Shown: piece by piece, positions 21,771 through 52,747 of the stretch
Position numbering within the stretch: position 1 is the stretch's first letter
How the letters are laid out: every line of letters starts with the position of its first letter
NCBI GenBank assembly: GCA_963805645.1
Contig: CAWDVA010000005.1
Location: forward strand, 62,113-126,112
DNA from: an uncultured Chloroflexia bacterium
GTDB taxonomy: Bacteria; Chloroflexota; Limnocylindria; QHBO01
DNA: 64,000 bases
Direction: 5' to 3'
Notes under the pieces: model-generated
Database searches by the model: none
What the model was told of the DNA's origin: nothing
Seen by the model: only the letters and a program-made list of their open reading frames with translations
Made by a program: the position numbers and the translations under genes

Positions 21771-21824
21771 GGCGGCGGCGCGGGGCATGCGGTACCCTAG
21801 GACGAGATGCCCGGAGGTGATGCC

Positions 21825-22754
21825 GTGACCGCGACCATGGACGAATCTGCCCGCGCTGAGGCGTTCTACGCGCACGTCTCCGGCGGCGGCAAGGTCGAGG
21901 CGGACGACCCGATGCCGGACGACTACCGTGCCGCCGTCCTCAAGTTCGTCGAGATGCACGCCAACTCGGAGCTCATGGGCGTGCTGCCGGAGCGCGAATG
22001 GATCCTCCGCGCGCCGACCCTCAAGCGCAAGCTGGCACTGACCAGCAAGGTCCAGGACGAGGTGGGCCATGCCCAGCTCCTGTACCGCGTGGCTGAGGAC
22101 CTGGGCAAGCCTCGTGAGCAGATGCTCGCGGACCTGATGGATGGCAAGACCAAGTTCCACAACGTCTTCCATTACCCAACCGAGTCGTGGGCCGATGTCG
22201 GCATCATCGCCTGGCTCGTGGACGCAGCAGCGATCGTCTCGCAGCAGGCGCTGCGAGACTCCTCGTACGCGCCGTACGCACGGACGATGAAGAAGATCTG
22301 CTGGGAGGAGAGCGTCCACATCATGCACGGGCGCGACGTGGTGCTCACCATGATGAACGGGACCGACTCCCAGCGCGCGCTTGTCCAGGATGCCCTGGAC
22401 CGATGGTGGGGCCCGCTGATGCAGATGCACGGCCCGCCCACCGACCCCGCGAAGGATCGGGACCTGATCTGGAAGATCAAGGCCAAGAGCAACGAGCAGC
22501 TTCGCCAGGAGTTCCTGTCCATCTACGTCCCGCGGATCCTGGAGCTGGGCCTGACGCTCCCGGACCCGGAGCTGCTCTACGACGAGGCGGAGGGTCGCTG
22601 GCACTACACCGAACCCGACTGGAACGAGCTCCGGTCAGTGGTGACCGGACACGGGCCGCGCTCGCAGGAGCGCCTCGCCTTCCGCCGCCAGAACTACGAC
22701 GCGACCCAATGGGTTCGTAACGCGATCCTGGGAGCTGCGCCCGCGGCGGCTTGA
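21825..22754 (+). CDS. paaA: 1,2-phenylacetyl-CoA epoxidase subunit A
   Basis: Di-iron ferritin-like oxygenase motifs (EMHANSELMG...EVGHAQLL...EESVHIMHG). GGAGG RBS before the GTG at 21825; alternative ATG at 21807 or 21837. Confidence 0.85.
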   Translation: MTATMDESARAEAFYAHVSGGGKVEADDPMPDDYRAAVLKFVEMHANSELMGVLPEREWILRAPTLKRKLALTSKVQDEVGHAQLLYRVAEDLGKPREQMLADLMDGKTKFHNVFHYPTESWADVGIIAWLVDAAAIVSQQALRDSSYAPYARTMKKICWEESVHIMHGRDVVLTMMNGTDSQRALVQDALDRWWGPLMQMHGPPTDPAKDRDLIWKIKAKSNEQLRQEFLSIYVPRILELGLTLPDPELLYDEAEGRWHYTEPDWNELRSVVTGHGPRSQERLAFRRQNYDATQWVRNAILGAAPAAA

Positions 22755-22817
22755 CCCATGCCCCCCGCGCCGCGGTCTGCCCGTCCCATTCCGCGGGCCG
22801 CGCGGTACCCTTCCCGC

Positions 22818-23174
22818 ATGGAGCAGCAGACGCAACCACGCGACAGGGTGTGGGAGGTCTTTTCGCAGGAAGCGGAGGGGGACCCCATGGTCCATTCGGG
22901 CAGCGTCCGGGCACCCGACGATGAGCTCGCCCTCCACTACGCCCGCGAGTTCTACGGCCGCCGGCAGGAGAGCCACCGCCTGTGGGTGGTTGACCGGGCG
23001 GAGATCACCGAGCTGGATGACCCGGACCTGCTGAATCCGCCCTTCGATCGGTCGTTCAAGCGCCCAGGCGGGTACATCATCAAGCACAAGCTCGAGGCAG
23101 CCAAGGCGCGGGTGGGGGCGCGGGCTGCGCAGTCGGACGACGAGTCGACCGCCGCAGGAGAGCCGGTCGCGTGA
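22818..23174 (+). CDS. paaB: 1,2-phenylacetyl-CoA epoxidase subunit B
   Basis: WEVFSQEAEGDPMVHSGSVRAPD...LHYAREFYGRR matches PaaB. Confidence 0.85.
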   Translation: MEQQTQPRDRVWEVFSQEAEGDPMVHSGSVRAPDDELALHYAREFYGRRQESHRLWVVDRAEITELDDPDLLNPPFDRSFKRPGGYIIKHKLEAAKARVGARAAQSDDESTAAGEPVA

Positions 23175-23953
23175 CCAGCATCCCGGTACCCGACACTGCG
23201 CTCCCGCGCGACGCCGTCGCGGAGCTGCTGCTGAGCCTCGCTGACGACGAGTTCGTCATCGGCTTCTGGGACTCGGAGTGGACCGGGATCGCGCCGATGC
23301 TCGAGGAGGATGTCGCGACCAGCTCCATCAGCCAGGACGAGATCGGGCACGCCAGGGCGCTTCACGAGCTCCGCGCCCAGCTGACCGGCGAGGACCCTGA
23401 TCTGGTCGCCTTCGGGCGGAACCCCGACGAGTATCGGCACGCGGCCCTGCTGAACCATCCGCGCACCGACTGGGCGTTCACCGTCGCCCGCCGCTACCTG
23501 TACGAGACCGCGGATGCCGTGCGTCTCGAGGCGCTGGCCCTGTCCACCTATGAGCCGCTCGCCCTGCTTGCGGCCAAGATGCGGCGCGAGGAGCGGTACC
23601 ACCTCATGCATCTTGGCGCCTGGATGGAGCGGCTGGCGCGCGGCGGTCCTGACACGCATCGTCGCCTCGCGGAGGCGCTCGTCACCCTGTGGCCCGACGC
23701 GCAGACGGTCTTCACGCCACTCGACGGTGAGCGAGCACTCGTGGAGAGCGGTGTCCTGCCCGAGCCGATGGTGGCGCTCCGACGCCGCTGGGCGAAGGAG
23801 ATCGGAGAGACGCTGGGTAGCCTGGATCTCCCGGTGCCGGACGCCACCCTGGAACCGACGGCCGACGGGCGCCGTCGCCGGACCGACGACTTTCGCTGGC
23901 TCCACGGCGAGTTCACGATGGTCGCGCGCTCGGACCCGGAGGCGACGTGGTAG
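23171..23953 (+). CDS. paaC: 1,2-phenylacetyl-CoA epoxidase subunit C
   Basis: GTG start overlapping the paaB stop. ADDEFVIGFWDSEW...SQDEIGHARALH ferritin-like. Confidence 0.75.
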   Translation: MTSIPVPDTALPRDAVAELLLSLADDEFVIGFWDSEWTGIAPMLEEDVATSSISQDEIGHARALHELRAQLTGEDPDLVAFGRNPDEYRHAALLNHPRTDWAFTVARRYLYETADAVRLEALALSTYEPLALLAAKMRREERYHLMHLGAWMERLARGGPDTHRRLAEALVTLWPDAQTVFTPLDGERALVESGVLPEPMVALRRRWAKEIGETLGSLDLPVPDATLEPTADGRRRRTDDFRWLHGEFTMVARSDPEATW

Positions 23954-24453
23954 CCACCCGTGACCCGCGCGAGACGGTCGTCTGGGCGGCCCTCGACGAG
24001 GTGTCCGATCCCGAGATTCCCACCATCAGCGTCGTGGAGCTGGGGGTCATCCGCGGTTTCGCCTTCGAGGAGCAGGCCGGTGGTGGCGAGCGCCTGCGGG
24101 TCGAGCTGTTGCCGACCTTCGTCGGCTGCCCGGCCATCGACATCATGCGCGAGCAGGTGGGGGAGCGGCTGCGGGCGCTGGGTGTCGCCGACGACGTGAT
24201 CGTCGAGCTCAGCTTCGCCGAGCCGTGGACATCTGAGCGGATCTCGGAGGCGGGCCGCGAGAAGCTGCGCGGCAGCGGCTTCGCCCCGCCGGCGGTGGGC
24301 GGCAGCCTGCTGACCATGGTGGACGACACGCCCTGCCCGTACTGCGGATCGCGCAACACGTCGCTGGACAATCCGTTCGGTCCGACCCTGTGCCGCGCCA
24401 TCTACCACTGCGACGACTGCCACCAGCCGTTCGAGCAGTTCAAGGCGATTTGA
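23947..24453 (+). CDS. paaD: Phenylacetate-CoA oxygenase subunit PaaD
   Basis: DPEIPTISVVELGVI...TFVGCPA and C-terminal CPYCGS...CDDC Cys cluster. Confidence 0.75.
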   Translation: MVATRDPRETVVWAALDEVSDPEIPTISVVELGVIRGFAFEEQAGGGERLRVELLPTFVGCPAIDIMREQVGERLRALGVADDVIVELSFAEPWTSERISEAGREKLRGSGFAPPAVGGSLLTMVDDTPCPYCGSRNTSLDNPFGPTLCRAIYHCDDCHQPFEQFKAI

Positions 24454-24939: not shown

Positions 24940-24988
24940 CGCGTAATCGGCCGGAGATCCATCGCCCGGTATCATCCGTATCAAGGCC

Positions 24989-25798
24989 ATGAACCAGATC
25001 GCCTCGTCTCTCCCCGGCGCAGCGCCCGTCCCCGACATCGCGGCGGTCGAGCGACGCATCGGACGGCTCCGCATCTACAACGTTGTCATGGGCTTCCTGC
25101 ATCTCGTGCAGGGTGCCGCCATCCTGGTGCTGGCCAACGACTTCGCCCTGCCGGTGACGGCGTCCTTCATGGCCGGACCACCCGGCTCCGGCCTCGTTCG
25201 CGACACGACCCTCTTTGACCTCCGCTTCGGGTGGGCCATCGCAGCGTTCCTGTTCCTCTCCGCGGCGGCGCACTTCCTGGTCGCGAGCCCGGGCATCTTC
25301 GGCTGGTATCGCGCCAACCTGCTGCGCGGCCGCAACTACGCGCGCTGGATCGAGTACGCGTTCAGCTCATCGCTGATGGTGGTGCTGATCGCCATGCTGC
25401 CCGGGATCAGCGACGTGGCCGCCCTGGGTGCGATCTTCGGGGTGAACGCGGCGATGATCCTCTTCGGCCTGCTGATGGAGCACTACGAGCAGCCAGGCCG
25501 GCCGAACTGGATGAGCTACTGGTTCGGTGTGCTCGCGGGCGCGGTGCCCTGGATCCTCATCGGCATCTACCTGTGGAATCCTGGATCGGAGGTTGCGGCA
25601 CCCGCCTTCGTGTACGCGATCTTCATCTCGCTCTTCGTCTTCTTCAACAGCTTCGCGGTCAACATGGTGCTGCAGTACCGGCGCGTGGGGCCGTGGCGCA
25701 ACTACCTGTTCGGCGAGTCGGTCTACATCGCCCTGTCTCTGCTGGCCAAGTCGGCGCTGGCCTGGCAGGTCTTCGCCGGGACCCTCGCACCGCGCTGA
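24989..25798 (+). CDS. Heliorhodopsin (7TM retinal protein, inverted topology family)
   Basis: RIYNVVMGFLHLVQ...NYARWIEYAFSSSLMVVLIAML...IFGVNAAMILFG...FFNSFAVNM...LSLLAKSALAWQVFAGTLAP. TM7 lysine in the SLLAKSALAW context and a TM3 glutamate, as in characterised heliorhodopsins. Confidence 0.8.
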   Translation: MNQIASSLPGAAPVPDIAAVERRIGRLRIYNVVMGFLHLVQGAAILVLANDFALPVTASFMAGPPGSGLVRDTTLFDLRFGWAIAAFLFLSAAAHFLVASPGIFGWYRANLLRGRNYARWIEYAFSSSLMVVLIAMLPGISDVAALGAIFGVNAAMILFGLLMEHYEQPGRPNWMSYWFGVLAGAVPWILIGIYLWNPGSEVAAPAFVYAIFISLFVFFNSFAVNMVLQYRRVGPWRNYLFGESVYIALSLLAKSALAWQVFAGTLAPR

Positions 25799-33159: not shown

Positions 33160-33750
33160 GTGCTCGATTTCATCCAGAGTCTGAACTACATCGACTTCGC
33201 ACTGATCGTCGTCCTGGCCACCGGGGCGTTCTTCGGCTTCCAGCAGGGGCTCATCCGCTACGTCCTCAGCTGGGTCTCGCTCGTCGTCGCCTTCATCCTC
33301 GCCGCGCAGCTCAAGGGCCCGGTGACCGACGCCCTGTCCGTCTTCTGGACCGCGTTCGATCCCGTCGTCCGCGAGTTCTGGGTCTTCATCTTCCTCTTCC
33401 TGGGCCTGTCGGTGGGCGGATGGTTCATCGTCCGGATGTTCTACCGGACCACCCGCCTGCCCATCGTGAAAGAGCTCGACGAGGTCGGAGGCGCACTCAT
33501 CGGCATCACCTTTGCCGCGACCTTCATCGTCCTCTTCCTCGTCGTCTTCGACTCGCTGTTCAAGGGCGCGGCGACGCTGCCCGGCGGACCCGGGTTGCCC
33601 GCGGGCCAGACGGACTGGCTCAAGGGCTTCTACAAGGAGATGAACGACTCGGTGCTGCTGGGCGTCTTCAACCGTACCGTGATCCCCATCGCCGGCACCC
33701 TGGCGAGGCCGTTCGTCCCGACCGAGATCGCGCAGTTCCTGAAGCTGTGA
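33160..33750 (+). CDS. cvpA: CvpA-family membrane protein
   Basis: GTG start after GAGGGG; four TM helices with CvpA-like layout. Conserved cvpA-mutS2 neighbourhood. Confidence 0.7.
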   Translation: MLDFIQSLNYIDFALIVVLATGAFFGFQQGLIRYVLSWVSLVVAFILAAQLKGPVTDALSVFWTAFDPVVREFWVFIFLFLGLSVGGWFIVRMFYRTTRLPIVKELDEVGGALIGITFAATFIVLFLVVFDSLFKGAATLPGGPGLPAGQTDWLKGFYKEMNDSVLLGVFNRTVIPIAGTLARPFVPTEIAQFLKL

Positions 33751-34400
33751 TCGCGCTGCCCGCGGGAGGGCCGGCGGACCCGGCAACCGCGGACACCGGA
33801 AATCCGCCGGCGGGACCCCCCATCACCGATCGCGCCTGGTTCGACCGCTCGGCCCTTGCAGTCGCCACGGCACTCCTGGGCTGCCGGCTCGTCCACGCCA
33901 CGGCCGACGGGGTCGTGGCCGGGCGCATCGTGGAAACCGAGGCCTACACCGGGCCCGAGGATCTTGCCTCTCACGCCGCGCACGGCCAGACGGCCCGAAA
34001 CCGGACCATGTTCGGCGCGCCGGGACACCTCTACGTCTACCTGGTCTATGGCATCCATCACTGCGTCAACGTGGTCTGCGGACCCGGGGCCAAACCGGAG
34101 GCGGTCCTCATCCGCGCCGTCGCGCTGGAGGAGGGCCTGCAGCTGGCCCGCGCCCGCCGCGGCGAACGTGCAGCCGCCCACCGCCTGGCATCGGGACCGG
34201 GCAACGTGGCCCGTGCCTTCGGCATCGATCGCGGCCTGGACGGCGCCGACCTGCTGGCCGGACCCGTGACCATCACGGATGGCCTCCCCGCCAAGCGGAT
34301 CTCGCGCCGGCCCCGCGTGGGCGTCGCCTACGCGGGTGCATGGGCCTCTCGACCGTATCGCTTCCTGGTGACCGATGACCCGCACGTCTCCCGTCGCTGA
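33747..34400 (+). CDS. mpg: DNA-3-methyladenine glycosylase (Mpg/AAG family); start uncertain
   Basis: FDRSALAVATALLGCRL...GRIVETEAYTGPEDLASHA...GHLYVYLVYGIHHCVNVV. GTG overlapping the cvpA stop is the only nearby start. Confidence 0.7.
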   Translation: MIALPAGGPADPATADTGNPPAGPPITDRAWFDRSALAVATALLGCRLVHATADGVVAGRIVETEAYTGPEDLASHAAHGQTARNRTMFGAPGHLYVYLVYGIHHCVNVVCGPGAKPEAVLIRAVALEEGLQLARARRGERAAAHRLASGPGNVARAFGIDRGLDGADLLAGPVTITDGLPAKRISRRPRVGVAYAGAWASRPYRFLVTDDPHVSRR

Positions 34401-36834
34401 TCCTGATCGGGCGCCGGCACCCGGCGCCGCGGCTGATCCAGGAACCCTGCGCGCCCTGGAGTTCAGCGCGATCGTCGAGCGCCTCGCGGCGCGGACCGCG
34501 TTCGCGCCGTCTCGCGAGCTGGCCGAGGCCATGCTGCCCATGGCACATGCGCGCCACGTCGCCCTGCTCCAGGAGCAGACCGACGAAGCCGCCCGGCTCC
34601 TGGACGAGCAGGCGCAGGCCACGGTGGGCGGGGCACGGGACGTTCGCGGAGCACTCGAGCGCGCCCGGCGCGGGGGGCGCCTTGCCGCCGCGGAGCTCCT
34701 GGAGATCGCCGATACGCTTCGCGCCACGTCCGGCTTCGCCGCGCGTCTCGCCAGCTGGCGTGGCCCGCACCTCGGGGAGGTGCGCGACCTGCTGGAGGAC
34801 GCGCCGGCGCTCCGCGAACGGATCGAGCGCAGCGTCGACGAGGCCGGCGAGGTCCTGGACACCGCATCTGCGGACCTCGCCGCCATCCGCAAGCGGATGC
34901 GGACCGCCCAGGATCGCGTCCGCGAGCGCCTGAACGCCATGCTGCGCTCGACCGACCTGGCGAGCGCCATCGGCGAGGCGATCGTGACCGTCCGGGCCGG
35001 CCGCTACGTCATACCCGTGCGCGCCGAGGCCAAGAGCCGGGTCAAGGGCATCGTCCACGACCAGAGCGCATCGGGTGCGACTCTCTTCGTCGAGCCGCTG
35101 GGCGTGGTGGAGCTGAACAACACCTGGACCCAGGCCGCCCTCGACGAACAGCGGGAGGTCGAGCGGGTGCTCGAAGCGCTCTCGCGCGGGGTGGAGGCAC
35201 AGGCGGAGGCGCTCACCGCCTCTCTCCAGGCGCTGGCGCGGGCGGATCTGTGGATGGCCAGGGCCCGTCTCGGTGCCGAGCTGGACGGCGTGCGCCCGGC
35301 GGTATCCGCCGATGCCCTCGAGCTGCTCTCCGCCCGCCATCCTCTGCTGGGGCCCGGCGCGGTGCCCATCGACCTTCGGCTCGGGGACCGGTTCGGGTAC
35401 CGGGCCATGGTCATCACCGGTCCCAACACGGGCGGCAAGACCGTGTCACTCAAGACGCTCGGATTGCTGGCCCTCATGCACCAGGCCGGCCTGCGCGTGC
35501 CGGCCGCCGACGGCGCCCGTCTGCCGGTCTTCGAGCGGGTCATGGCCGACATCGGCGACGAGCAGAGCATTGCGCAGTCGCTCTCCACCTTCTCGAGCCA
35601 CCTGCGCAACGTGGTGCGATTCGTCGAATCCGCCGGCGAGGGTGCGCTCGTGCTCCTCGACGAGATCGGCGCGGGCACCGACCCCACCGAGGGGTCTGCC
35701 CTGGCCATGGCCATCGTCGAGCGGCTCCTGGCCGCCGGCGCCACGGTCGCCGCCACGACGCACTACGCCGAGCTCAAGACCTTCGCGACCGACCACCCGA
35801 ACGTCACGAACGCATCGGTCGAGTTCGACGTGGCGACGCTGCGCCCCACGTATCGCCTCACCATCGGGCTGCCGGGCAAGAGCCAGGCCTTCGCCATCGC
35901 GGAGCGCCTTGGGCTGCCCCAGGAGGTTCTTGCCGACGCGCAGCAGCGTCTCTCGGCCGAGCACCTGTCCATGGAGGAGACGCTCGCCGCCATCCAGCGT
36001 GCCGAGGTCGCCCGCGGCGAGGAGCTGGAGGAGGCGCGCGGCGATCGGCAGCGAGCCCGCGAGGAGCGCGAACGCGCGCGGGCCGGCATCGCCCGTGCGC
36101 GTCGCGAGGCGGCGCAGATCCTCGCCGATGCCCGCCACGCAGCCGACGACCTGCTCGGTCGCACGGAGCGCGAGGTGGCCGACCTGCGCCGCGAGATGCA
36201 TCGCCTGGAGAACGTCACTCGCGGCCGGCGACGCGGCCCGGGCGAGGCGGGGCTGGAGGTGCTGGAGCAGCGCGCCGCCGCGGCCCGCGCGGCCGCGGAC
36301 GATGCGATCGCGCCCCGCTCTCCCGGATCTGAGGCTCGAGCGGACGGCGATACCCCCATGGGCGAGGGCGCGGAGGTCCAGCCGCGCGTCGGGCTGTGGG
36401 GTCGCAGCCGCACGTTGGGAAGCACGGGCCGCATCGTGGAGCGCTCGGGGAAGACCGGGCGCCTGACGCTGGAAACCGAGGGTGCCCGGCTGGTCCTGCC
36501 CGCCGACGACGTCGAGGTGGTGCCCGAACCGATCAGCGGCCCACCGCCGCGCGATGCCGAGGCCGACGAGATGCGCCGCCGCGCCGCCGCTCGGGTGACG
36601 CCCACGCTCGATCTGCACGGAGAGCGAGTGGCGGCCGCGCTGGAGCGGGTGGACGAGTACCTCAACGACGCCCTGCTGGCCGGCATGGACAGCGTTGCGA
36701 TCATCCACGGCGCGGGGACCGGTGCCCTCCGCCGCGCCGTGCGGGAGCACCTCACCCAGCACCCGCGCGTGCGCGGAGCCCGTCCCGGCCGCCGCGAGGA
36801 GGGCGGCGACGGGGCGACGATCGTCGAGCTCTAG
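34375..36834 (+). CDS. mutS2: Endonuclease MutS2 (with C-terminal Smr domain)
   Basis: LEFSAIVERLA N-terminus, Walker A GPNTGGKT, C-terminal Smr (TLDLHGERV...AIIHGAGTGALR). Confidence 0.85.
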   Translation: MTRTSPVADPDRAPAPGAAADPGTLRALEFSAIVERLAARTAFAPSRELAEAMLPMAHARHVALLQEQTDEAARLLDEQAQATVGGARDVRGALERARRGGRLAAAELLEIADTLRATSGFAARLASWRGPHLGEVRDLLEDAPALRERIERSVDEAGEVLDTASADLAAIRKRMRTAQDRVRERLNAMLRSTDLASAIGEAIVTVRAGRYVIPVRAEAKSRVKGIVHDQSASGATLFVEPLGVVELNNTWTQAALDEQREVERVLEALSRGVEAQAEALTASLQALARADLWMARARLGAELDGVRPAVSADALELLSARHPLLGPGAVPIDLRLGDRFGYRAMVITGPNTGGKTVSLKTLGLLALMHQAGLRVPAADGARLPVFERVMADIGDEQSIAQSLSTFSSHLRNVVRFVESAGEGALVLLDEIGAGTDPTEGSALAMAIVERLLAAGATVAATTHYAELKTFATDHPNVTNASVEFDVATLRPTYRLTIGLPGKSQAFAIAERLGLPQEVLADAQQRLSAEHLSMEETLAAIQRAEVARGEELEEARGDRQRAREERERARAGIARARREAAQILADARHAADDLLGRTEREVADLRREMHRLENVTRGRRRGPGEAGLEVLEQRAAAARAAADDAIAPRSPGSEARADGDTPMGEGAEVQPRVGLWGRSRTLGSTGRIVERSGKTGRLTLETEGARLVLPADDVEVVPEPISGPPPRDAEADEMRRRAAARVTPTLDLHGERVAAALERVDEYLNDALLAGMDSVAIIHGAGTGALRRAVREHLTQHPRVRGARPGRREEGGDGATIVEL

Positions 36835-39609
36835 GGCGCCGCGGTCGGGGTTGGGATCGGGGTGGGGGTCACGACGGGCGCCGGCGTGGGCGTCCCTGAT
36901 CCCTTCGGGGTGGGCTTGGGCGGGGGACTGATGCTCGGCCCTGGGGTCACGGTCGCCTCGGGCGTGGGGCTCGGCGACGGGGTGGGGGACGGGTGTTGGT
37001 GTCGAGGTCGGGACCTCGCCCGGGGTGCACAGCTGGGTGGGCGCCAGCGGGGCGTCCAGGGCCGGGGTCGGGAAGCGCGGCACCTTTGACTCCCTGCCGC
37101 GCCACTTGTCGATCCACTTGACGTTCGCGCTGACCCAGGTGGGCTGGTCCGCGTTCCACTTCGACAGATCCAGGTAGACCTCGCTGGCCGGTGCCGTGGG
37201 GCTGGCCGAGGCCGACGGGCTGACGCCGGGGCTCGCCGATGCGTCGGGCACCGGCGTGGCACCCAGCTGGTCGCCGCAGCCGGGCTGCCAGATCTTGCCG
37301 GTCGCTGCCTCGATGGTGAGCTGCACGTGCGTCGTGTCCTGCTGTGTCGGCACGTCATCGGCCTTGAAGACCTCGGTGACGGTCCTGGTCGTGTGAGGAC
37401 CCGGCAGCATGCCGCTGATGGCGTCGACCTTCTTCTCGACGATGCCCTCGGGCCGGATGAAGTCGTTGTCGGGCAGCTTGTTCTTCGCCGCGACCTCCGC
37501 CATGTAGTCATGCCAGATGAACGTGGGTCCATCCGCGGCGAACACGCCCTTGATCGGCGAGTTGTCGCTGTTTCCCACCCAGACGCCGGTGACGATGGCG
37601 CCTGTGCTGTCGCTCGTATCCTTGGCGGGAGCCAGGTAGCCGAAGGCCTGCAGGTCCTTGAAGTCGTTCGTGGTCCCCGTCTTCAGGGTTGCGGGTCGTC
37701 GGCCGCCGTCGAGTCCGGGCAGCTGGAAGCTGGGACCCCACCACGGGTTGGCCCTTGGATCGGTGTTGTCGGCAAGGATGTCGGTGGTCAGGTACGCGGC
37801 CTGCGCCGAGAGGACCCGCTTGGGCTGTTCGCCGTCGGTGGCATGGTCGTAGATGACCGTCCCGTTGCGATCCGTGATCTTCTCGATCAGGTACGGCGAG
37901 GCGAGCTCGCCGCCGTTGGCGATGGCACCGTAGGCGCCCGCCAGGTCGATCATGTGGACGCCGATGGTGCCCAGGGTCAGCGAGGGCACCGCCACCTCCT
38001 GCTCCTGGCGCGGATCCCAGCGGATGCCCATCTTCACGGCCTGGTCCACGACGTTCTGCGTCCCGATCACCTGCTGCGCCTTCACTGCCGGGATGTTCAG
38101 CGAGTACTTCAGCGCGTCGCGGATGCGGACGGGGCCGCGCTCCTGGTTGTCCGCGTCCGGCACGGAGTAGCCGTTCACGATGTCGCCCCGCACGTCCATG
38201 AACATGGACGCCGGCGTGATCTTGTTCAGCTCGAAGCCGGTGGAGTAGGTGATGGGCTTGAAGGCGGACCCCGCCTGCCGGTAGGCGGTGCCCACCACGT
38301 CGTAGTAGGGCTTGAAGGTGTCCGACTCCTCGCCGTAGTAGTTGGCGCTGCCGACATAGGCCAGCACGGCGCCGGTCCGGTAGTTCACGGTGACCAGCGC
38401 GTCGTTGTTGATGTTCCGCTTCTGGTTGAGCCGGTTGATCCAGGTCATGGCCGCCGAGCCGTATTTCGCCTTGAGCTGGGCCGTGGTCATGTGGTTCATG
38501 TCGTAGGCGATGGCCGCCCATTTCTCGGCCGAGACCTGGTAGCCGTTGTAGTCGAGGGTTGTGGTGATGGTCAGCCCGCCCGAGTCCAGAAGTGTCTCGC
38601 CACCAAGGAGGTCGTTCGCCGCCGCGCGCACGGCGTAGACGAAGTGGGGCGCCTTGTACTGCTGCGATTTCGTGGGCGCCAGGACGATCGTCTCCTGCTT
38701 CGCGGCGTCGTGCTGCGCCTGGGTGATGAACCCCGACGAGAGCATGTTGTCGAGCACGTAGCCCTCGACGCGGGCGGCATCGGCGTCAGCGGGCACCACG
38801 AGGATCTTGTTGCCATCAGCATCGGTCTGCTGCACCTCGGCCTTGGTGGGATCGAGCGCCGATGGCGCTCGCACCAGGCCGGCCAGCATGGCCGCCTCGC
38901 CCAGCGTCAGGGTGTTCGCCGCATCGGTCTTCGTGATGTCCTTGCCGAAGTAGGCGTTGGCTGCCGCCCAGATCCCGTAGGCGTTGTCGCCGTAGTAGAT
39001 CTGGTTCATGTACATCTCGAGGATCTTCTGCTTGCCCGCGTCGCCGCTGTAGCGCTGCCCCAGGCGCAGGGCGAGGACGGCCTCCTTGAGCTTGCGCTCG
39101 ACCTGGCGGCTGGGGTCGGCGAGCAGGTCCGCACCGAAGAGGCGCATCCGGACCAGCTGCTGGCAGATCGTCGACGCTCCGGAGACCTCGCGACCGGAGG
39201 TGACGTTCTGCAGGAAGGCACGCACGATGCTGCGGAAGTCCACGCACGGGTTGGTCCAGAAGGTCTGGTCCTCCGCGGCGACCTGGGCATCCACCATGAC
39301 CTGGGGAATCTGATCGAAGGTGATGGACCGGCGCTGCTCGGCAGCGAAGGTCGCCAGCTGGACGCCGTCGGCCGAGAGCACCTCCGATCCCTCGGAGAGC
39401 TGGAAGTCCTCCACCCCTGCGACGTTCGGCAGCCCCGAGGTGTACGACGCGTAGACCGCCATCACGCCCAGGAACAGGCCGGCGGCCAGCACGGCGGAGA
39501 CGCCCAGGATCATCGCGGGCAGGGCCGCGAGGGAGCCGGATGATCGAGGGCGCGCGGAACGGCGCGGTGCGGGGCCGCGCTGCGGCCGCGGCGGAAGGCG
39601 TCGGGTCAT
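36831..39609 (-). CDS. ponA: Class A penicillin-binding protein (transglycosylase + transpeptidase); 3' boundary unresolved
   Basis: TM anchor, GT51 motifs (EDQTFWTNPCVDF, RMRLF), TP motifs (SAFKP, SLN, KTGTT). The in-frame ORF (35446..39711) has no stop for 1.39 kb antisense to mutS2. An alternative frame ends at 36831 with a Pro/Thr-rich tail. Confidence 0.7.
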
Positions 39610-39655
39610 CGGCCGAGCAGAGTAGCACGGACCGTACCGGTATACTCCACCGGCC

Positions 39656-40921
39656 ATGAGCGGCTCCGTGTTCGACGACCTCAGCTGGCGCAACCTCATC
39701 GCGCACAGCACCGACCCCGATGCACTGCGCGCGGCGCTGGACGGCGCACCGGTCGTCTTCTACTGCGGCTTCGACCCCACCGCGCCGAGCCTCCATTTCG
39801 GGAACCTGGTCCAGCTGGTCACCATGCGCCGCCTGCAGCTGGGCGGGCACAGCCCGATCGCCGTGGTGGGCGGCGCAACCGGCCTGATCGGCGACCCGAG
39901 CGGACGCAGCGAGGAGCGGGCGCTGAACGCCGAGGAGGTCGTCGCCGACTGGGTCGAACGCATCCGCGGCCAGGTGGAGCGCTACCTCTCATTCGAGGGC
40001 CACAACGCCGCGCGCGTGGTGAACAACCTGGAGTGGTCCCGGCCGATGCACGCGATCGAGTTCCTGCGCGACGTCGGCAAGCACTTCAGCGTCAACCGCA
40101 TGCTCGACAAGGAGGTCGTGAGCGCGCGACTGGAGACGGGCATCAGCTACACGGAATTCAGCTACCAGCTGCTGCAGGCACTCGACTACCTGGAGCTCCA
40201 TCGCCGTTACGGCGCCGTGCTGCAGACCGGTGGCAGCGACCAGTGGGGCAACCTGACCGGGGGCGTCGACCTCATCCGACGCGTCACCGGCGACACGGTG
40301 CATGCCCTGGCGACCCCCCTCATCACCAAGGCGGACGGCACCAAGTACGGCAAGACGGCGAGCGGCTCCATCTGGCTGGATCCGCAGATGACCAGCCCGT
40401 TCGCGTTCTACCAGTACTTCCTCAACCAGGCCGATGCCGACGTCGGTGCGCTGCTGCGCACGTTCAGCTTCCGGACGCATGAGGAGATCGAGGCGCTCGA
40501 TCGCGCCACGACCGAGCGACCAGAGGAGCGTGCAGCGCAGCGGGCGCTGGCCGGTGAGCTCACCGCGCTCGTGCACGGGGAGGAGGAGTCCGAACGTGCT
40601 CTGGCGGCATCCTGGGCCCTGTTCGGCCAGGGTGACCTGGGCGCGCTCGAGGCCGCGACGCTGGCAGCCGCCACCGCCGAGCTGCCGCGAGCCGAGGTTC
40701 CCGCCGCGGCCCTTCCCTCGGTGGTGGACCTGCTGGTGGCCACCGGGCTGTGCGAGAGCCGCGGCGCTGCCAAACGAGCCGTTGCCGAGGGGGGTGTCTA
40801 TCTCAACAACGCCCGCGTGAGCGACGCCGGTACGAGCCCGGATCCCGCCGACCTCCTGGCGGGTCGCTGGCTGATCCTGCGTCGGGGACGGCGTTCCCTG
40901 GCAGCCGTCGAGGCCCGCTGA
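39656..40921 (+). CDS. tyrS: Tyrosine--tRNA ligase
   Basis: HFGNL (HIGH-like) and KYGKTASG (KMSKS-like) motifs; C-terminal S4 domain. Confidence 0.9.
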
Positions 40922-45544: not shown

Positions 45545-46303
45545 ATGTCCGGCCACAGCAAGTGGTCGCAGATCAAGCGACAGAAGGGCGCGAATGACGC
45601 GAAGCGCGGCGCGCTCTTCACGAAGCTGACTCGCGAGATCATCACCGCCGCCCGGCAGGGTGGGGGAGATATCGAGGCGAACTACCGCCTGCGCATGGCG
45701 GTGGACAAGGCCAAGCGCGAGTCCATGCCCGCGGACAACATCAAGCGCGCAATCGAGCGCGCCACGGGCAGTGGCGCGGATGCCGAGCAGTACGAGGAGA
45801 TCACGTACGAAGGCTTCGGCCCCGCGAATGTCGCGGTGATCGTGGCGGCCATGACCGACAACCGGAACCGGACCGCCTCGGAGGTGCGCTCGATCTTCAA
45901 CAAGATCGGCGGTTCGCTGAGTCCGGTCGCCTGGCAGTTCGAGCAGAAGGGGATCATCAGCCTGCCACTCAACGGGCGGGACCCCGACGAGGTCACCCTT
46001 GCCGCCATCGACGCGGGCGCGGCGGACGTGGGCACGCCGGAGGGCGGCTCGATCACGGTGACGACGGAGCCCACCGAGCTCGAGCAGGTCCGCGTGGCGC
46101 TGGGCGCCGCTGGGTACGAGGCCGAGTCGGCTGAGCTTTCGATGGAGCCCACCACGCTGGTCGAGATCAGCGACGAGAAGATCGCGAAGCAGGTCCTGGG
46201 TTTCGTCGAGCGTCTCGAGGACCTCGACGACGTGCAGAACGTGTACGTCAACTTCGACATCCCCACCGAGCTCCTCGAGCAGCTGGAGGCCTCAGTCGCC
46301 TGA
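45545..46303 (+). CDS. yebC: YebC/PmpR family DNA-binding transcriptional regulator
   Basis: MSGHSKWSQIKRQKGANDAKRGALFTKL hallmark N-terminus. Confidence 0.9.
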   Translation: MSGHSKWSQIKRQKGANDAKRGALFTKLTREIITAARQGGGDIEANYRLRMAVDKAKRESMPADNIKRAIERATGSGADAEQYEEITYEGFGPANVAVIVAAMTDNRNRTASEVRSIFNKIGGSLSPVAWQFEQKGIISLPLNGRDPDEVTLAAIDAGAADVGTPEGGSITVTTEPTELEQVRVALGAAGYEAESAELSMEPTTLVEISDEKIAKQVLGFVERLEDLDDVQNVYVNFDIPTELLEQLEASVA

Positions 46304-46366: not shown

Positions 46367-46867
46367 GTGGTGATCGTCCTGGGCATTGATCCCGGCACCG
46401 CCAGCCTGGGCTTCGGGGTGGTGGCGCTCGAGGAGAACCGCCTCCGGCTCGTCGACGCCGGCGTGGTGCGCACCGGTCCCGAACAGACCGATGGCGAGCG
46501 CCTCGCCCAGCTGGAGTCCGCCATGCGCTCGCTGGTGGCACAGCACCGGCCGGAGCGGATGGCCGTCGAGCGTCTCTTCTTCCAGCGCAACGTGCAGACC
46601 GCCATGGCAGTCGGTCAGGCACGTGGCGTGGCGCTGCTGGTGGGAGCGCATGCCGGCCTGCGCATCGACGAGCCCACTCCGAACGAGGTGAAGCAGGCGG
46701 TCTGCGGGAACGGATCAGCCGGCAAGCGGCAGGTGGCCAGCATGGTGGAGCGCCTCCTCGGCGTGCGGCTCACGGGCGCCGCCGACGACGCGACCGACGC
46801 CCTGGCCTGCGCCATTGGCTGCCTGTACCGCGCCCGCAGCGAGCCCCGGCCGGTGGGCGCGCGATGA
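46367..46867 (+). CDS. ruvC: Crossover junction endodeoxyribonuclease RuvC
   Basis: VLGIDPGTASLGFGVV...ERLFFQRN...TDALACA catalytic motifs. Confidence 0.85.
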   Translation: MVIVLGIDPGTASLGFGVVALEENRLRLVDAGVVRTGPEQTDGERLAQLESAMRSLVAQHRPERMAVERLFFQRNVQTAMAVGQARGVALLVGAHAGLRIDEPTPNEVKQAVCGNGSAGKRQVASMVERLLGVRLTGAADDATDALACAIGCLYRARSEPRPVGAR

Positions 46868-48884: not shown

Positions 48885-49634
48885 TCAGGGCACGCGGAAC
48901 AGGTAGACCCCGAAGCCCAGGCAGTCGCGCCCGCCGCGCAGGTATCGGTCCCGGACCAGCCTGGCCTGCTCCACGAAGGCGTCGCGATCGGGGTCATCCG
49001 GGTGCGCGGCGGCCCAGCGGTCGACCGTCGCGAAGTACCCGAACTCGTACCGGTCCCAGTCCTGCTGGCTCGCAGAGCCGCTCCACAGCGGTTGCATGTC
49101 CAGGTCCACCCCGGCCATGGCGTTGAGGTCGTGGGTCGTCATCTCGTCGCGCCGCGCTCCGAGCAGCCCGAGGTACTCGGCGCCGGGCTCCGTGCGCCAG
49201 TAGCCGTCTCCCACCAGGAGCTGGCCCCCAGGCACCACGTGGCGCTCCAGGTCCTCCAGGAGCGCCCGGAAGCTCGGGTGCTCCCACCCGGGGCCGATGC
49301 ATACGACCAGGTCGAACGGCTCCGGCGACTCGTAGGTCCGGGCATCTCCCTCCACGATCTCGGCCGTCCCCGCCGGGAGTGCGGCCACCCGCTCTCGTGC
49401 GACGGTCAGCAGATGGGGCGACACCTCCACGCCCACGCCCCGAGCGTCGTAGCGCTCCACGATGCGAGCCAGCAGCTCCGCCTTGCCGCAGCCCAGGTCC
49501 AGGACCCGGGCCGCCGGCGCGAGCGCCACCGCCTCGACTGCGCGATCCACCGTGTCCGCGGAGAGCGGGTTCATGATCGCCATCTCCCCGTGGGCGATGG
49601 CGGAGAAGCGCTGTCGCAGCGCCTCGTCCATCAT
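48885..49634 (-). CDS. Class I SAM-dependent methyltransferase
   Basis: VLDLGCGKAELL...VGVEVSPHLL...EIVEGDA motifs. Last gene of the urate operon; ATGA overlap with uricase. Confidence 0.7.
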   Translation of the reverse strand: MMDEALRQRFSAIAHGEMAIMNPLSADTVDRAVEAVALAPAARVLDLGCGKAELLARIVERYDARGVGVEVSPHLLTVARERVAALPAGTAEIVEGDARTYESPEPFDLVVCIGPGWEHPSFRALLEDLERHVVPGGQLLVGDGYWRTEPGAEYLGLLGARRDEMTTHDLNAMAGVDLDMQPLWSGSASQQDWDRYEFGYFATVDRWAAAHPDDPDRDAFVEQARLVRDRYLRGGRDCLGFGVYLFRVP

Positions 49635-50566
49635 CCGTCCCGCCGCAGCACCAGCTCGATGCGGCCGTGGGGCGGACGCGGGTCGGTGTAGACCTTGACC
49701 GCATCATCCTCGGCCGATTCGGCGCCCACGTCCCAGAGCCGGTTCTGACCGTCGAAGGAGACCGATGCCAGCTGCGGCCAGCGCGCCAGCATCCGCTGCC
49801 CGATCTCGTGGAGCAGGTGCTGGATCGAGAGGCTGACGAACCCGTGGAAGACCGATGCCGCCAGGTCCGCCACCTGCTCACCGGCGACGTAGCGCTCCGG
49901 GCGGCCGCCGAGGCCGTCGGTGGCATCGGCGTAGGTCCACCCGATGTCGCACCAGATGTAGAGCGGCCGGTCGCGCCGCTCGGGGAGGGTCGTGAACTCG
50001 TCGCGGGCGAACGAGGCGAACGCGGACCCGGTGGTCTTGATCATCTGCAGCTCGGCGCGACCGCAGGCATGCTCCGTGATCCGGACGCCGCCATCGGCTC
50101 GCTCCAGGTGCATCCGGGCGGTGGAGTGGTCGCAGCGGTCGCGGGTGAAGAGGACCTCCGAGAGGGCGAATGAGCCCGGCTCGTCCCCGGGAACCACCGC
50201 GGCGGGGTAGGGGAGCTCGCGGCCGAGCATGGTGACAGACTCCATCTGCGGGTAGGTCGCCAGGAAGCGGGCACCCACGTCGTGGATCCAGCCCTCCAGG
50301 GTCGGGGCCCGCGTCTCCAGCGAGACGGACCCGATGAAGTTCTTCATGGTGTCGGTGGCCACCACCATCCGGTTGTCGCCCTCGGTGTAGGCCTCCCAGA
50401 ACGCGTCGCCGTGGACCGTGACCTCGATCTCGGCGCCCATCAGCCGGTTCTCGCGCCCGCTGAACGCGGATTCGGGAATGGTGGTGACCCCTCGCAGGGG
50501 CACGCCTCCGGTGCGATAGACCCGCACCTCCGCCTTTCCGTATCGGATCTCGTGCTTCACGCCCAC
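49631..50566 (-). CDS. Urate oxidase (uricase)
   Basis: YGKAEVRVYRT and DNRMVVATDTMKNFIGS match the uricase T-fold signatures (compare Arthrobacter uricase VVATDTQKN). Confidence 0.75.
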   Translation of the reverse strand: MGVKHEIRYGKAEVRVYRTGGVPLRGVTTIPESAFSGRENRLMGAEIEVTVHGDAFWEAYTEGDNRMVVATDTMKNFIGSVSLETRAPTLEGWIHDVGARFLATYPQMESVTMLGRELPYPAAVVPGDEPGSFALSEVLFTRDRCDHSTARMHLERADGGVRITEHACGRAELQMIKTTGSAFASFARDEFTTLPERRDRPLYIWCDIGWTYADATDGLGGRPERYVAGEQVADLAASVFHGFVSLSIQHLLHEIGQRMLARWPQLASVSFDGQNRLWDVGAESAEDDAVKVYTDPRPPHGRIELVLRRDG

Positions 50567-51642
50567 TCCTCCGTCTCCGGTGGCGGCCCGCCACGCATGG
50601 TCAGCAGCCGATCGGCCGCGATCCGGACACAGTCGTCCACCGCACGGCGCAGCTCCGCCTCGCGGTCGTTGCGCAGGGCCGCTTCGATGAGTGGGATGAT
50701 CGCGGAGCGCGGCCGTCCCGCCACGAACACGGCGAAGCGAAATCCGAAGCGCGACTCATAGACCTCGTTGAGTGCCGCGAGCTCCTCGCCCACCCATGCC
50801 GGCTCGCGCCCATCCTCCTCGTCAGACCCATCCGCACCGTCGTAGCCCTGCTCGACACGGCTCGCGGCCGACAGCGACGCTGCGTCCGCGCCGATCCGCG
50901 GGTGCGCACTCACCAGCTCGATCGCCTCGTCCTCCGGGAGAACGCGCCCGACTTCCTGCGCCACCGCTACCAGGCCGTCGTCGTCGATGAACGGCCGTGC
51001 GGCAGCCAGCCACGCAAGGAACCGCGGCGCCCCCTCGAACAGCGGGGCCAGCTGGTCGGCGACTGCCGCGTCCGGCAGCGCATCGAGATCGGGGACCGCC
51101 GGGAAGGCGACACGTCCGGCGGGCTCCTCCATGGGATCCAGCGCGAACTCCACGAGATCCCGGATGGGCAGCCCATTGTCCGGGTTGGTCGCAGGGATCT
51201 GCGGCTTGAGCCGCCGGTCAGAATCCACCGCGCCCTCGTGCACGCGAACCACGTGGAAACCGCGCCGCAGGTAGAACCCGATGGCCGGCAGGTTGTCGTT
51301 GGTGGTGACCAGCCAGAGCCGATGGTGCCCGCTCGCCGCCGCCACCTGCCGGACGGTCTCCACCAGCGCGGTCCCGGCCCCGGCCCCCCGCGGCTCGGCG
51401 TGGAGGGTGACGATCTCCATCCCTCCGTCGGGCACCTCCTGGACGGTCGCCAGGCCGATCGGCGCGCCCTCGCGCTCCGCCACGAGGCCCTGGAGCGTGA
51501 ACGGGTCGATCAGCTCTCCGAGGCGCGCGACCTTGCGCACCCCGCCGCCCAGGTCACCGAGCAGCGTCTCCGCCCACGCCCGGTCACCAGGCTCGAAGTC
51601 CCGCACCTCGACGCCGCCGACCACGAGCGCGTCCATGGTCAT
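50557..51642 (-). CDS. Fusion protein: N-terminal GNAT acetyltransferase domain + C-terminal OHCU decarboxylase (UraD) domain
   Basis: N-terminal GNAT motif RQVAAASGHHRLWLVTTNDNLPAIGFYLRRGF; C-terminal ...ELVSAHPRIGA... OHCU decarboxylase motif. Confidence 0.65.
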   Translation of the reverse strand: MTMDALVVGGVEVRDFEPGDRAWAETLLGDLGGGVRKVARLGELIDPFTLQGLVAEREGAPIGLATVQEVPDGGMEIVTLHAEPRGAGAGTALVETVRQVAAASGHHRLWLVTTNDNLPAIGFYLRRGFHVVRVHEGAVDSDRRLKPQIPATNPDNGLPIRDLVEFALDPMEEPAGRVAFPAVPDLDALPDAAVADQLAPLFEGAPRFLAWLAAARPFIDDDGLVAVAQEVGRVLPEDEAIELVSAHPRIGADAASLSAASRVEQGYDGADGSDEEDGREPAWVGEELAALNEVYESRFGFRFAVFVAGRPRSAIIPLIEAALRNDREAELRRAVDDCVRIAADRLLTMRGGPPPETEEWA

Positions 51643-51993
51643 CTAGCTGCCGCGATACGTGGAGATCCCGAACGGGGTCAGCAGCAGGGGAATGTGGTAG
51701 CTGCGGTCGGGATCGTCGATGCGGAAGCCCACCGCCATGTTCTCGAAGAACCCGTCACGATCCTCCGTGTCGAGCCACGCCGCGACGTCGAAGACCAGCT
51801 GGTAGCTGCCCGGGGTGAGCTCGCCGGGCAGGAGGGAGCGCACGCGCCCGTCGCCATCGGTCTCCACCTCGGCCAGCAGCTCCGGCTGGCCATCGCCGCC
51901 CAGGCGGAAGAGTGCCACCGGGAATCCGGCCGCAGGCTCGCCAGTTTCCAGGTCCAGGACGTGGGTCGAGATGGTCGAAGGCCCGTCGGCCAC
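51643..51993 (-). CDS. 5-hydroxyisourate hydrolase (transthyretin-like)
   Basis: STHVLD N-terminal motif and C-terminal YRGS tetrapeptide. Confidence 0.8.
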   Translation of the reverse strand: MADGPSTISTHVLDLETGEPAAGFPVALFRLGGDGQPELLAEVETDGDGRVRSLLPGELTPGSYQLVFDVAAWLDTEDRDGFFENMAVGFRIDDPDRSYHIPLLLTPFGISTYRGS

Positions 51994-52007
51994 GTTATCC
52001 TCCGCAC

Positions 52008-52430
52008 ATGGGTACGCTGCAGATCCGGGTTGGCGACCTCCACTTTACCGCCCACTGGGAGGCGGATGCGCCGCGGACGGTGGAGGCGGTTCGGGCGCTG
52101 CTGCCGATCCGCAACCGGCTGATCCACTGCCGATGGAGCGGCGAGTCGACCTGGATCCCGTTGGGCGACCTGCGGGTTGGCGTCGGCTATGAGCATCACA
52201 CCTCGCACCCATCGCCCGGGGAGCTGCTGATCTACACCGGCGAGCTGTCCGAGTGCGAGATCCTGTTCCCGTACGGTGCCTGCGCGTTCAGCTCGAAGCT
52301 GGGCCAGCTGGCCGGCAACCACTTCGCCACCCTCGATCCGGACGACGCCTGGCGGGAGCGGCTGGCCGAGGTCGGACGACGGACCCTGTGGCACGGAGCC
52401 CAGGAGATCGAGATCATGGAGGTCCCCTGA
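52008..52430 (+). CDS. DUF3830-like hypothetical protein (cyclophilin-like fold)
   Basis: Internal ATG MGTLQIRVGDLHFTAHWE within ORF 51912..52430. Confidence 0.5.
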   Translation: MGTLQIRVGDLHFTAHWEADAPRTVEAVRALLPIRNRLIHCRWSGESTWIPLGDLRVGVGYEHHTSHPSPGELLIYTGELSECEILFPYGACAFSSKLGQLAGNHFATLDPDDAWRERLAEVGRRTLWHGAQEIEIMEVP

Positions 52431-52432
52431 CC

Positions 52433-52747
52433 GTGGCCTGGCTGATCCTGGGCGTGGTGGTGGCCCTCTTCGTCCTCGTGGTATTCCGGGTGCTGACACT
52501 GCTGGTGGGGCTGGTGGCCATCATCCTGGCCTTGCTGGCACTCGTGGCATTCGGTGAATGGCGGGACCGCCATCGGCAGCGCGGAATCCACAATCCGGCT
52601 GCAGCATTCGACCCGAACAAGCCCAACGAGTACGGACGTTCGAGCCAGCAGCACTGGGAGCCACCCACCCCCTACATCGACCATCCCGACGGCGGGGGAG
52701 CCCCTCCCGGCGTGGACCGCGGCGATGACCGCCCACGACCCAGGTAG
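52433..52747 (+). CDS. Small membrane protein (single/double TM), hypothetical
   Basis: GTG start overlapping the upstream stop; VAWLILGVVVALFVLVVFRVLTLLVGLVAIILALLALVAF. Confidence 0.4.
   Translation: MAWLILGVVVALFVLVVFRVLTLLVGLVAIILALLALVAFGEWRDRHRQRGIHNPAAAFDPNKPNEYGRSSQQHWEPPTPYIDHPDGGGAPPGVDRGDDRPRPR

Follow-up and report, generated by a model that had tools for sequence, protein, structure and literature searches.

One extra base at the start of the Pro/Thr-rich tail of a class A PBP gene in a Limnocylindria assembly

The class A PBP gene and its convergent neighbour mutS2

The window, which is the whole stretch of DNA analysed (64 kb), comes from a soil Chloroflexota belonging to Ca. 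Limnocylindria and not from an actinobacterium, although the original prediction had likened the PBP tail to actinobacterial ones. Its central part carries a class A PBP gene on the minus strand and a mutS2 gene on the plus strand, and the two are convergent (Table 1). The ORF listing of the minus strand gave one frame of 1421 aa (35446..39711) and another of 233 aa (36831..37532), referred to here as frame 1 and frame 2. The original prediction had described a long frame with no stop before 35446, and another that ends at 36831 in a Pro/Thr-rich tail; the listing confirmed both.

Table 1. Features of the PBP-mutS2 region (positions in the window)
Feature	Position	Strand	Description
Class A PBP core	36996..39609	-	Frame 1; Arg-rich, predicted cytoplasmic N-terminus, putative TM anchor, transglycosylase, transpeptidase and C-terminal domain
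Site of the single extra base	36991..36994	-	Exact base ambiguous within these 4 nt
True PBP 3' end	36831..36992	-	Frame 2; 53-codon Pro/Thr/Ser-rich low-complexity tail plus TAG stop at 36831-36833
Frame-2 ORF, upstream part	36993..37532	-	Overlaps the real PBP frame in another phase; non-coding
Spurious frame-1 read-through	35446..36830	-	Shadow ORF, codon-aligned antisense to mutS2
mutS2 (endonuclease MutS2, 819 aa)	34375..36834	+	Convergent with the PBP gene; TAG stop at 36832-36834

The domain content indicated that the gene on the minus strand encodes an ordinary class A PBP, with a predicted TM anchor, glycosyltransferase, transpeptidase and lineage-specific C-terminal domain. PF00912 (Transgly, glycosyltransferase family 51) matched residues 82-259 (E=1.5e-49, profile positions 2-164 of 178), and PF00905 (Transpeptidase) matched residues 405-649 downstream of it (E=1.7e-21). 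By inspection, an Arg-rich stretch, MTRRLPPRPQRGPAPRRSARPR, was found at the N-terminus, followed by a hydrophobic stretch, LAALPAMILGVSAVLAAGLFLGVMAVYASY, as a putative TM anchor. The best PDB matches were the PBP1A structures 4oon (3.6e-57) and 5u2g. The intact orthologue P0001, encoded by the same-species genome L084, covered positions 1-533 of 535 of the NCBIfam 'PBP1A family' profile TIGR02074 at 387.3 bits, below the curated cut-off of 508.75 bits. The label class A PBP is thus safe, but that of PBP1A, as NCBIfam strictly defines it, is not established.

Two start codons were considered, namely 39609 (ATG, MTRRLPP...) and the 39513 of the public gene call (MILGVSAV...). The start at 39609 is conserved, since the tblastn matches of close relatives begin at query residue 1. 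P0001 aligned to frame 1 over the PBP core, and the C-terminal domain of the core was conserved in the lineage and ended ...LCTPGEVPTSTPT. The homology in frame 1 ran to ...LCTPGEVPTSTPTP, at ~36995, further than the limit of at least ~37090 originally given for conserved PBP sequence. In frame 2, the part at 36993..37532 had no Pfam match, and all homologues there aligned to frame 1. In GC-rich DNA, this part is open by chance.

On the opposite strand, the mutS2 product matched TIGR01069, the NCBIfam mutS2 equivalog, at 808.9 bits (cut-off, 400 bits) over profile positions 4-790 of 790, and both MutS_V (PF00488) and Smr (PF01713) were matched in Pfam. The stops of the two genes overlap in the palindrome CTAG at 36831-36834, as had been noted for the second frame. 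The same arrangement of the two genes was found in L084, and CTAG lay at the PBP stop in 60 of 76 Limnocylindria loci. A small feature documented by these comparisons is that the PBP gene in Limnocylindria meets the convergent mutS2 stop-on-stop.

The extra base and the two candidate C-termini

L084 belongs to the same species as the window (99.365% identity over 22,683 columns). The window has exactly one extra base at 36991-36994, its minus strand being CCAACACCCG and that of L084 CCGAC-CCCG; the 9-nt version without it reads CCAACACCG or CCAACCCCG. In a MAFFT alignment with the six closest relatives, the one-column insertion occurred in the window only, and megablast against L084 placed the gap at window position 36994. 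This was the sole coding indel between the window and L084 in 22.7 kb, and all 19 other genes common to both were intact with equal ORF lengths. Removal of one base at 36991-36994 gave ...TPSPTPS..., identical to P0001, which is an intact protein of 893 aa. Shortening the C5 run (36984-36988) by one base instead yielded ...TPVPTPS... and was less parsimonious.

A 1-nt indel had been predicted within ~36840..37080, a segment rich in C runs. The indel lies in that interval and the base is absent from the 99.4%-identical L084. A clear change of C-run length was not seen: relative to L084, the change can be read as an A inserted inside a C4 run beside a G>A substitution, or as CC>CCC with two synonymous substitutions. 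Metagenome contigs were also scanned. A strain-specific 27-mer beside the indel gave no matches; a 20-mer from the conserved KWIDKWR codons gave three, all unrelated beyond the seed, and no same-species contig was found.

Both candidate C-termini were compared with those of orthologous loci. In all 76 Limnocylindria loci with a complete 3' end, the PBP gene kept a single frame to its end. Each encoded a PT/PS tail of 35-97 aa, and the stop after the tail adjoined or overlapped that of the convergent mutS2. Residues 841-893 of P0001 matched window 36992..36834 in frame 2 with 96% identity (51/53 residues), and the tails of L005, L002, L003, L001 and L031 were collinear with it. Across the 76 loci, no orthologue had a frame-1 stop near 37000 and none had the long extension. 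These comparisons identified a disordered Pro/Thr-rich tail of ~55 residues, ending at 36831, as the real C-terminus of the PBP, as predicted originally, and they documented that the class A PBP of Limnocylindria invariably carries a PT/PS-rich tail of this disordered type.

The tail was hypervariable between strains, differing from L084 at 4.3% of positions compared with 0.6% overall. Seven differences from L084 fell in it, of which five were synonymous and two were conservative non-synonymous when read in frame 2; read in frame 1, one was synonymous and six were not (chance of at least five of seven substitutions in one phase, 0.045). Downstream of the extra base, the frame-2 tail had no stops and showed no decay. 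In L042, an apparent independent frameshift was found in the last ~20 codons of the tail.

After the shift, frame 1 continues for 512 codons (35446..36830 plus 36831-36990), of which ~460 are antisense to mutS2 over 1.39 kb, and its peptides would include GDRDPR.../AEHQSPAQAHPEGIR. The original prediction had judged such an antisense extension implausible, and it was absent from all 76 orthologous loci (0/76). It was also absent from the 120 best database homologues (839-941 aa) and contained no Pfam domain. The differences from L084 in this stretch were 13 synonymous and one non-synonymous in the mutS2 frame, and 0 and 14 in the extension frame. The extension frame is codon-aligned antisense to mutS2, so that stops arise only where the sense strand has TTA, CTA or TCA as a codon. 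Together, the three accounted for 13 of 6,571 codons (0.2%) in 20 genes of the window, or ~1 stop per 500 codons, and mutS2 holds a single one, the TCA at 35446. Frame 1 is thus open for 512 codons because it is antisense and codon-aligned to a gene with 90% GC3, where stops almost never arise. In relatives, the open antisense frames over mutS2 had a median of 174 codons and reached ~1,000. This open frame is no longer than chance gives. It is a chance shadow ORF, with no translation into a conserved protein.

This over-extended ORF has a public product of 1355 aa, P0121, which was clustered with the intact 893-aa protein. A mis-called 3' end had been among the causes proposed; it was seen as a consequence of the shift, in P0121, and did not stand as an independent cause. 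In sum, the comparisons across loci showed that the extra base is present in the assembly, that the true C-terminus is the frame-2 tail and that the frame-1 extension is spurious.

Consensus error or genuine allele

The integrity of reading frames in the rest of the window was judged by comparison with L084 (19 genes) and by Pfam coverage of the remaining ORFs, of which ~39 had near full-length matches. No second frameshift was found by these two approaches in the ~58 genes of the window. Two candidates for a second lesion were rejected: an alpha/beta-hydrolase at 17273-17850 (-), whose Pfam match is N-terminally truncated but whose ORF of ~190 aa is intact, and a UvrA-like ORF at 58037-60391, which lacks a canonical start codon, yet has no frame break. 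Three approaches based on composition were unusable for this purpose. A GC3 phase track over the whole window merged adjacent genes of the same phase; maximal segments of codon log-odds absorbed mutS2 into the shadow frame of the PBP; a Viterbi model with frameshift transitions made its calls where ordinary genes meet and overlooked the real frameshift. Shadow frames, other antisense frames included, generally score positively on codon usage in this genome.

The case is an ordinary assembly error or a very recent mutation, not new biology, and the two causes named originally, a sequencing or assembly error and a genuine frameshift, both still hold. We infer, with a probability of roughly 0.6, that the extra base arose as a consensus error during assembly and not by real mutation. 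The error would have arisen in a low-complexity segment of ~78% GC whose sequence differs from strain to strain. One extra base at the start of the tail would shift the PBP frame, and frame 1 would then run antisense through mutS2, while the organism itself would make a normal PBP of 925 aa (893 aa if the start is 39513). The source contig is 445,518 bp in length (NCBI/ENA), which suggests a long-read assembly. Related MAGs had contigs of 80 kb to 2 Mb, and several of them came from the Microflora Danica set.

A less probable but serious reading is that the base really occurs in the strain that dominates the population sampled, so that a recent allele keeps the catalytic domains and loses the PT tail. 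Its product would gain a 512-residue nonsense extension rich in Ala, Gly, Arg and Leu, or would be truncated or degraded in practice. Since class A PBPs can do without their disordered tail, such an allele would be tolerated: B. subtilis PBP1 without its 121-aa C-terminal IDR keeps its enzymatic activity, and at wild-type expression growth is normal (PMC9732909). The absence of a second frameshift in ~58 genes indicated that the indel error rate of the assembly is low and comparable to natural pseudogene formation, so that there is no special reason to expect a random consensus error in these 64 kb. In addition, the change adjoins a substitution in the hypervariable stretch, which fits a real local mutation, and relative to L084 it does not look like a simple homopolymer-length error, which counts against an artefact. 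The frameshift that L042 seems to have near its own tail end implied that genuine frameshifts may arise, and be tolerated, in a tail that looks dispensable. However, the insertion was unique among the 76 loci and the 120 best database homologues, and the retention of the tail in every orthologue implied selection for it. An exported extension of 512 aa of junk would likely be costly, and the frame-2 tail showed no relaxed constraint, so that the mutation could only be very recent.

Two further readings also accept the base as real. By +1 slippage, the peptidyl-tRNA-Pro on CCC (36993-36991) would re-pair with CCG in frame 2 and yield the wild-type protein; the junction is indeed CCC followed by G, skipping one base gives P0001 residue for residue, and CCC-N sites are known to be prone to +1 shifts by tRNA-Pro (PMC4519876; PMC7577736). 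On the other hand, none of the 76 orthologues needs a shift (0/76), same-species L084 included, and CCC is followed in frame 1 by GUC (Val; GTC in DNA), a common codon in this genome of 90% GC3. The site has no rare codon, frame 1 meets no stop for 512 codons, and upstream no conserved SD-like element was identified. Outside programmed sites, +1 shifts are typically rare, in general <0.003% per codon (PMC4519876). P-site re-pairing (CCC-G) was the one hallmark of programmed +1 frameshifting present; with neither conservation, a slow or stop codon in the A site nor a stimulator, a programmed mechanism was rejected, and the site would be incidentally leaky at best. It is thus very unlikely that slippage makes up for the extra base, and equally so that a strain with a frameshifted PBP has some wild-type protein restored by a spontaneous tRNA-Pro slip at CCC-G. 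More improbable still is a functional extended PBP of 1387 to 1421 aa with ~460 C-terminal residues antisense to mutS2. The ORF is open, a simple codon-usage score is positive and a public collection holds the 1355-aa product; yet shadow frames generally score positively in this genome, an antisense frame that is codon-aligned is expected to be this open by chance, and no homologue or Pfam domain accompanies the extension. Together with the substitution pattern, in which the extension frame had only non-synonymous differences, this reading was refuted for practical purposes.

Significance and comparison with known systems

The main value of this case lies in annotation hygiene, given that a public collection contains the mis-extended P0121; a gene caller forced to take it may also down-weight or clip mutS2. 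As a worked example, it shows cleanly how a single base and a codon-aligned shadow frame at 90% GC3 produce a false gene overlap of 1.4 kb. If the base is real, the strain would be a modest natural experiment on the dispensability of the aPBP tail. If slippage did occur, a proline codon that is inherently prone to shifting, within a proline-rich coding region, would buffer a frameshift allele.

The closest parallel is B. subtilis PBP1, whose modules are TM-GT-TP-FN3-IDR (Brunet et al., 2022, PMC9732909). Like it, the PBP described here has a putative N-terminal anchor, GT and TP domains, an extra folded C-terminal domain (~160 aa, before the tail) and a low-complexity extracytoplasmic tail. 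As in IDR-type aPBPs, the tail in Limnocylindria is conserved in presence and composition and variable in length and sequence. Conserved presence combined with variable length and sequence is the typical pattern of disordered regions. Unlike that of B. subtilis PBP1, the tail here is strictly Pro/Thr/Ser-rich, with PT/PS repeats, and is out of frame in this assembly. By analogy with the B. subtilis tail, it may act as an extracytoplasmic disordered region and might steer the synthase to wall gaps; a need for the tail in full synthase function or localisation in vivo is known for B. subtilis only (PMC9732909).

The lesion itself resembles the indel errors of long-read MAGs: one base in a GC-rich, run-rich and strain-variable segment, a gene caller that over-extends the ORF, and an intact version in a 99.4%-identical genome. 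It differs from them in that the window has no other frameshift and the change is not an unambiguous change of homopolymer length. With prfB/RF2-type +1 shifting and tRNA-Pro slippage it shares the CCC-G junction, at which a +1 slip restores the wild-type protein exactly; unlike the prfB/RF2 type, it has no conservation among orthologues, no in-frame stop or hungry codon and no identified stimulator. The extension is like other shadow ORFs of high-GC genomes in being codon-aligned antisense, with GC3 of 0.90 and substitutions that follow the mutS2 frame only. Unlike the usual shadow ORF, it continues a real gene in frame as a result of the frameshift, and so it looks like a C-terminal extension and not like a spurious ORF of its own.

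Reading frames at the 3' end of the PBP gene

The gene product is a class A PBP with both catalytic domains present. The Transgly (1.5e-49) and Transpeptidase (1.7e-21) matches both fell within the first 650 residues of the 1421-aa ORF, and no Pfam match was found beyond them. The closest solved structures were PBP1A entries (4oon and 5u2g); the NCBIfam PBP_1a_fam model gave 387 bits, short of its curated threshold of 508.75, and the name "PBP1A" therefore applies only loosely. The convergent mutS2 ORF passed the NCBIfam equivalog cut-off of 400 with 808.9 bits. The original prediction of a long open minus-strand frame (frame 1) and a second, PT-tailed frame (frame 2) was borne out by the ORF list. 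When the three minus frames were translated, frame 1 read ...LCTPGEVPTSTPTPVPHPVAEPHARGDRD... near the junction, and the PT-rich character switched from frame 1 to frame 2 at ~36990.

Features at the PBP/mutS2 junction and elsewhere in the window
Feature	Coordinates	Strand	Basis or content
Long PBP ORF, 1421 aa	39711 to 35446	-	ORF list
Second ORF, 233 aa	37532..36831	-	ORF list; PT-rich end
mutS2 ORF, 819 aa	34375..36834	+	ORF list; MutS_V and Smr (Pfam); NCBIfam mutS2 equivalog
CTAG palindrome	36831-36834		common to PBP and mutS2 stop codons
Pur_DNA_glyco gene	33747-34400	+	3-methyladenine DNA glycosylase
YebC/TACO1-like gene	45545-46303
ruvC	46367-46867
UvrA-like ORF	58037-60391	+	double ABC ATPase
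Heliorhodopsin gene	24971-25798	+	PF18761, 1.1e-99, profile positions 1-242 of 242
Urate-degradation cluster	49631-54139		uricase, GNAT-OHCU decarboxylase fusion, HIU hydrolase/transthyretin, DUF3830, amidohydrolase
Phenylacetate cluster	21801-24453		PaaABCD

Related loci were taken from a scan with one genome per species (80 loci, all MAGs, 59%-89% identity), and in each the PBP frame was extended to its first stop. All 80 belonged to Chloroflexota, class Candidatus Limnocylindria. The window organism is therefore no actinobacterium. In each of the 76 loci whose 3' end was complete, among them L084, the locus of a same-species genome, the PBP ended in a single frame. A PT/PS-rich tail, 35-97 residues long with a median of 52, followed a conserved ...CTPGEVP motif, which identified the frame-2 tail as the true C-terminus, as had been proposed. 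The PBP stop lay at the end of convergent mutS2, with CTAG at the stop in 60 of the 76. This overlap, kept in most Limnocylindria loci sampled, leaves zero intergenic space and therefore no room for a terminator between the two genes.

In one relative (L079, 8670-8780), a Cys-bracketed acidic module, QCADGIDNDGDLLVDLLDPGCTDASDPQEGPP, replaced further PT repeats after the PT tail; this module could represent a small appended domain that binds metal or calcium. Eight loci (L004, L034, L045, L076, L026, L051, L077, and L060) came from bins labelled Steroidobacteraceae, Zixiibacteriota, Dormiibacterota, Binatia or Angelobacter and had the typical Limnocylindria PBP-mutS2 arrangement, which hints that contigs were mis-binned or that the taxonomic labels are incorrect.

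The extra base and the antisense extension

The L084 contig (GCA_964627465.1) was collinear with window 26831-49509 at 99.365% identity, with 139 mismatches and three indel events. One of these was an extra base at window 36994, where the minus strand read CCAACACCCG in the window and CCGAC-CCCG in L084. The 1-nt indel expected in the C-run segment was thus located at 36991-36994. The junction sequence of the closest relatives corresponded to a fusion of the window's frame 1 with its frame 2; when the window was aligned at the DNA level with the six closest loci, exactly one gap column was needed in this region, and the window base there was absent from 6/6. In the protein search, the intact PBP of L084 (P0001, 893 aa) was 99% identical to the window PBP, and none of the 120 best hits exceeded 941 aa. 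Residues 841-893 of P0001 gave a second HSP in the other frame, at 36992..36834 (tblastn, 96% identity), and deletion of one base at 36991-36994 brought the window protein into full agreement with P0001 across the junction. The correct CDS is therefore 39609..36831 minus one base at 36991-36994. The two other indels both fell in the spacer that separates the YebC/TACO1-like gene from ruvC: a T was absent from the window at 46312 after a C5 run (CCCCC-GG vs. CCCCCTGG in L084), and nine bases beyond, at 46321, one GCC unit (3 nt) was absent.

Frame 1 is codon-aligned antisense to mutS2, the codons of both occupying the same triplets, so that a frame-1 stop requires a sense TTA, CTA or TCA. These made up only 13 of 6,571 codons (0.2%) in 20 window genes with a GC3 of 0.90, and the sole one in mutS2 was the TCA at 35446, the exact end of the long ORF. 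An open run of ~460 codons is thus of expected length and no anomaly, and long open antisense frames across mutS2 were also common in relatives. The extension had no Pfam family match and no homologue. The 14 strain differences between the window and L084 in 35446-36830 were 13 synonymous and 1 non-synonymous in the mutS2 frame, against 0 and 14 in the extension frame. The 1.39 kb overlap is an annotation artefact, in agreement with the view that this stretch is not genuine PBP. A 1355-aa product identical to window 39513..35446 (P0121) is nevertheless contained in a public protein collection, where it shares a 90%-identity cluster with the intact P0001; its source contig (445,518 bp) is in NCBI and ENA.

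The true tail (36831-36992, 162 nt) was a divergence hot spot between these two 99.4%-identical strains, with 7 differences (4.3%, against 0.6% overall). Five were synonymous and two conservative (I/V and I/T) in frame 2, whereas one was synonymous and six non-synonymous in frame 1; the probability that at least five of seven fall in one codon phase by chance was 0.045. The tail has thus evolved as frame-2 coding sequence until the present or nearly so, a pattern that fits an artefact and a very recent mutation alike.

Origin of the extra base

Here, we favor an artefact, with a probability of roughly 0.6. The base was unique among the 76 loci and all database homologues, the sequence downstream showed no decay, and the site lay in a ~78% GC segment with abundant base runs and sequence variation between strains. 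In addition, the 445 kb source contig resembled the Microflora Danica MAGs among the relatives, which are Nanopore-only and Medaka-polished (PMC12313526). A genuine recent allele is a tentative second explanation. The assembly was otherwise clean: no other coding indel was found against L084, all 19 other genes called there were matched in the window by intact, equally long ORFs, ORFs elsewhere gave near full-length Pfam matches, and two further suspect ORFs were cleared or remained as non-frameshift oddities. The change was no unambiguous homopolymer-length change, and L042, a related locus, seems to bear an independent frameshift within the final ~20 tail codons (8640-8730), where the called frame ends ...PTPTAVARAGGAGRAAAHRDA and the +1 frame stays Pro-rich (...PLSPVPVAQVAPLPTATPEP) until it terminates at the stop of mutS2, like the PBP frame of other loci. 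A real allele would also be tolerable if the tail behaved as in B. subtilis PBP1, whose disordered tail is needed neither for enzymatic activity nor for growth at normal expression (PMC9732909).

Recoding would leave the base in place: at the junction, frame 1 has the codon CCC with a G after it, CCC-N sequences are known to be prone to shifts (PMC4519876), and a +1 slip of tRNA-Pro from CCC onto CCG would restore the exact wild-type sequence. However, a programmed +1 frameshift was rejected, since no orthologue needs the shift, the next codon is the common GUC, and no in-frame stop occurs at the junction; with non-programmed +1 shifts being rare, such a slip is improbable. Whether artefact or allele, the original observation is real and its interpretation supported, and the biology is ordinary.

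Neighboring genes and architecture of the PBP

Three co-directional genes lay tightly packed, with the Pur_DNA_glyco gene sharing 26 nt with the start of mutS2 and 4 nt with the end of the CvpA-like gene upstream of it; L084 showed an identical arrangement. The heliorhodopsin gene was full-length and adjoined the threonyl-tRNA synthetase gene. The UvrA-like ORF opened right after the TGA that ends the gene before it, and its conserved N-terminal motif (IEVRGARENNL...GVSGSGKSS) was not preceded by any ATG, GTG or TTG; the first canonical start was the TTG at 58127, just ahead of the Walker A motif. Translation may begin at a non-canonical codon (CTG or ATC), or the start codon may have been lost.

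The modules of the window PBP were ordered as putative membrane anchor, GT, TP, a ~160-aa lineage-conserved domain and the presumably disordered PT tail. This architecture parallels that of B. subtilis PBP1 (TM-GT-TP-FN3-IDR), whose tail has been proposed to hold the synthase at wall gaps (PMC9732909). By analogy, we speculated that the tail of the window PBP might play the same gap-holding role.
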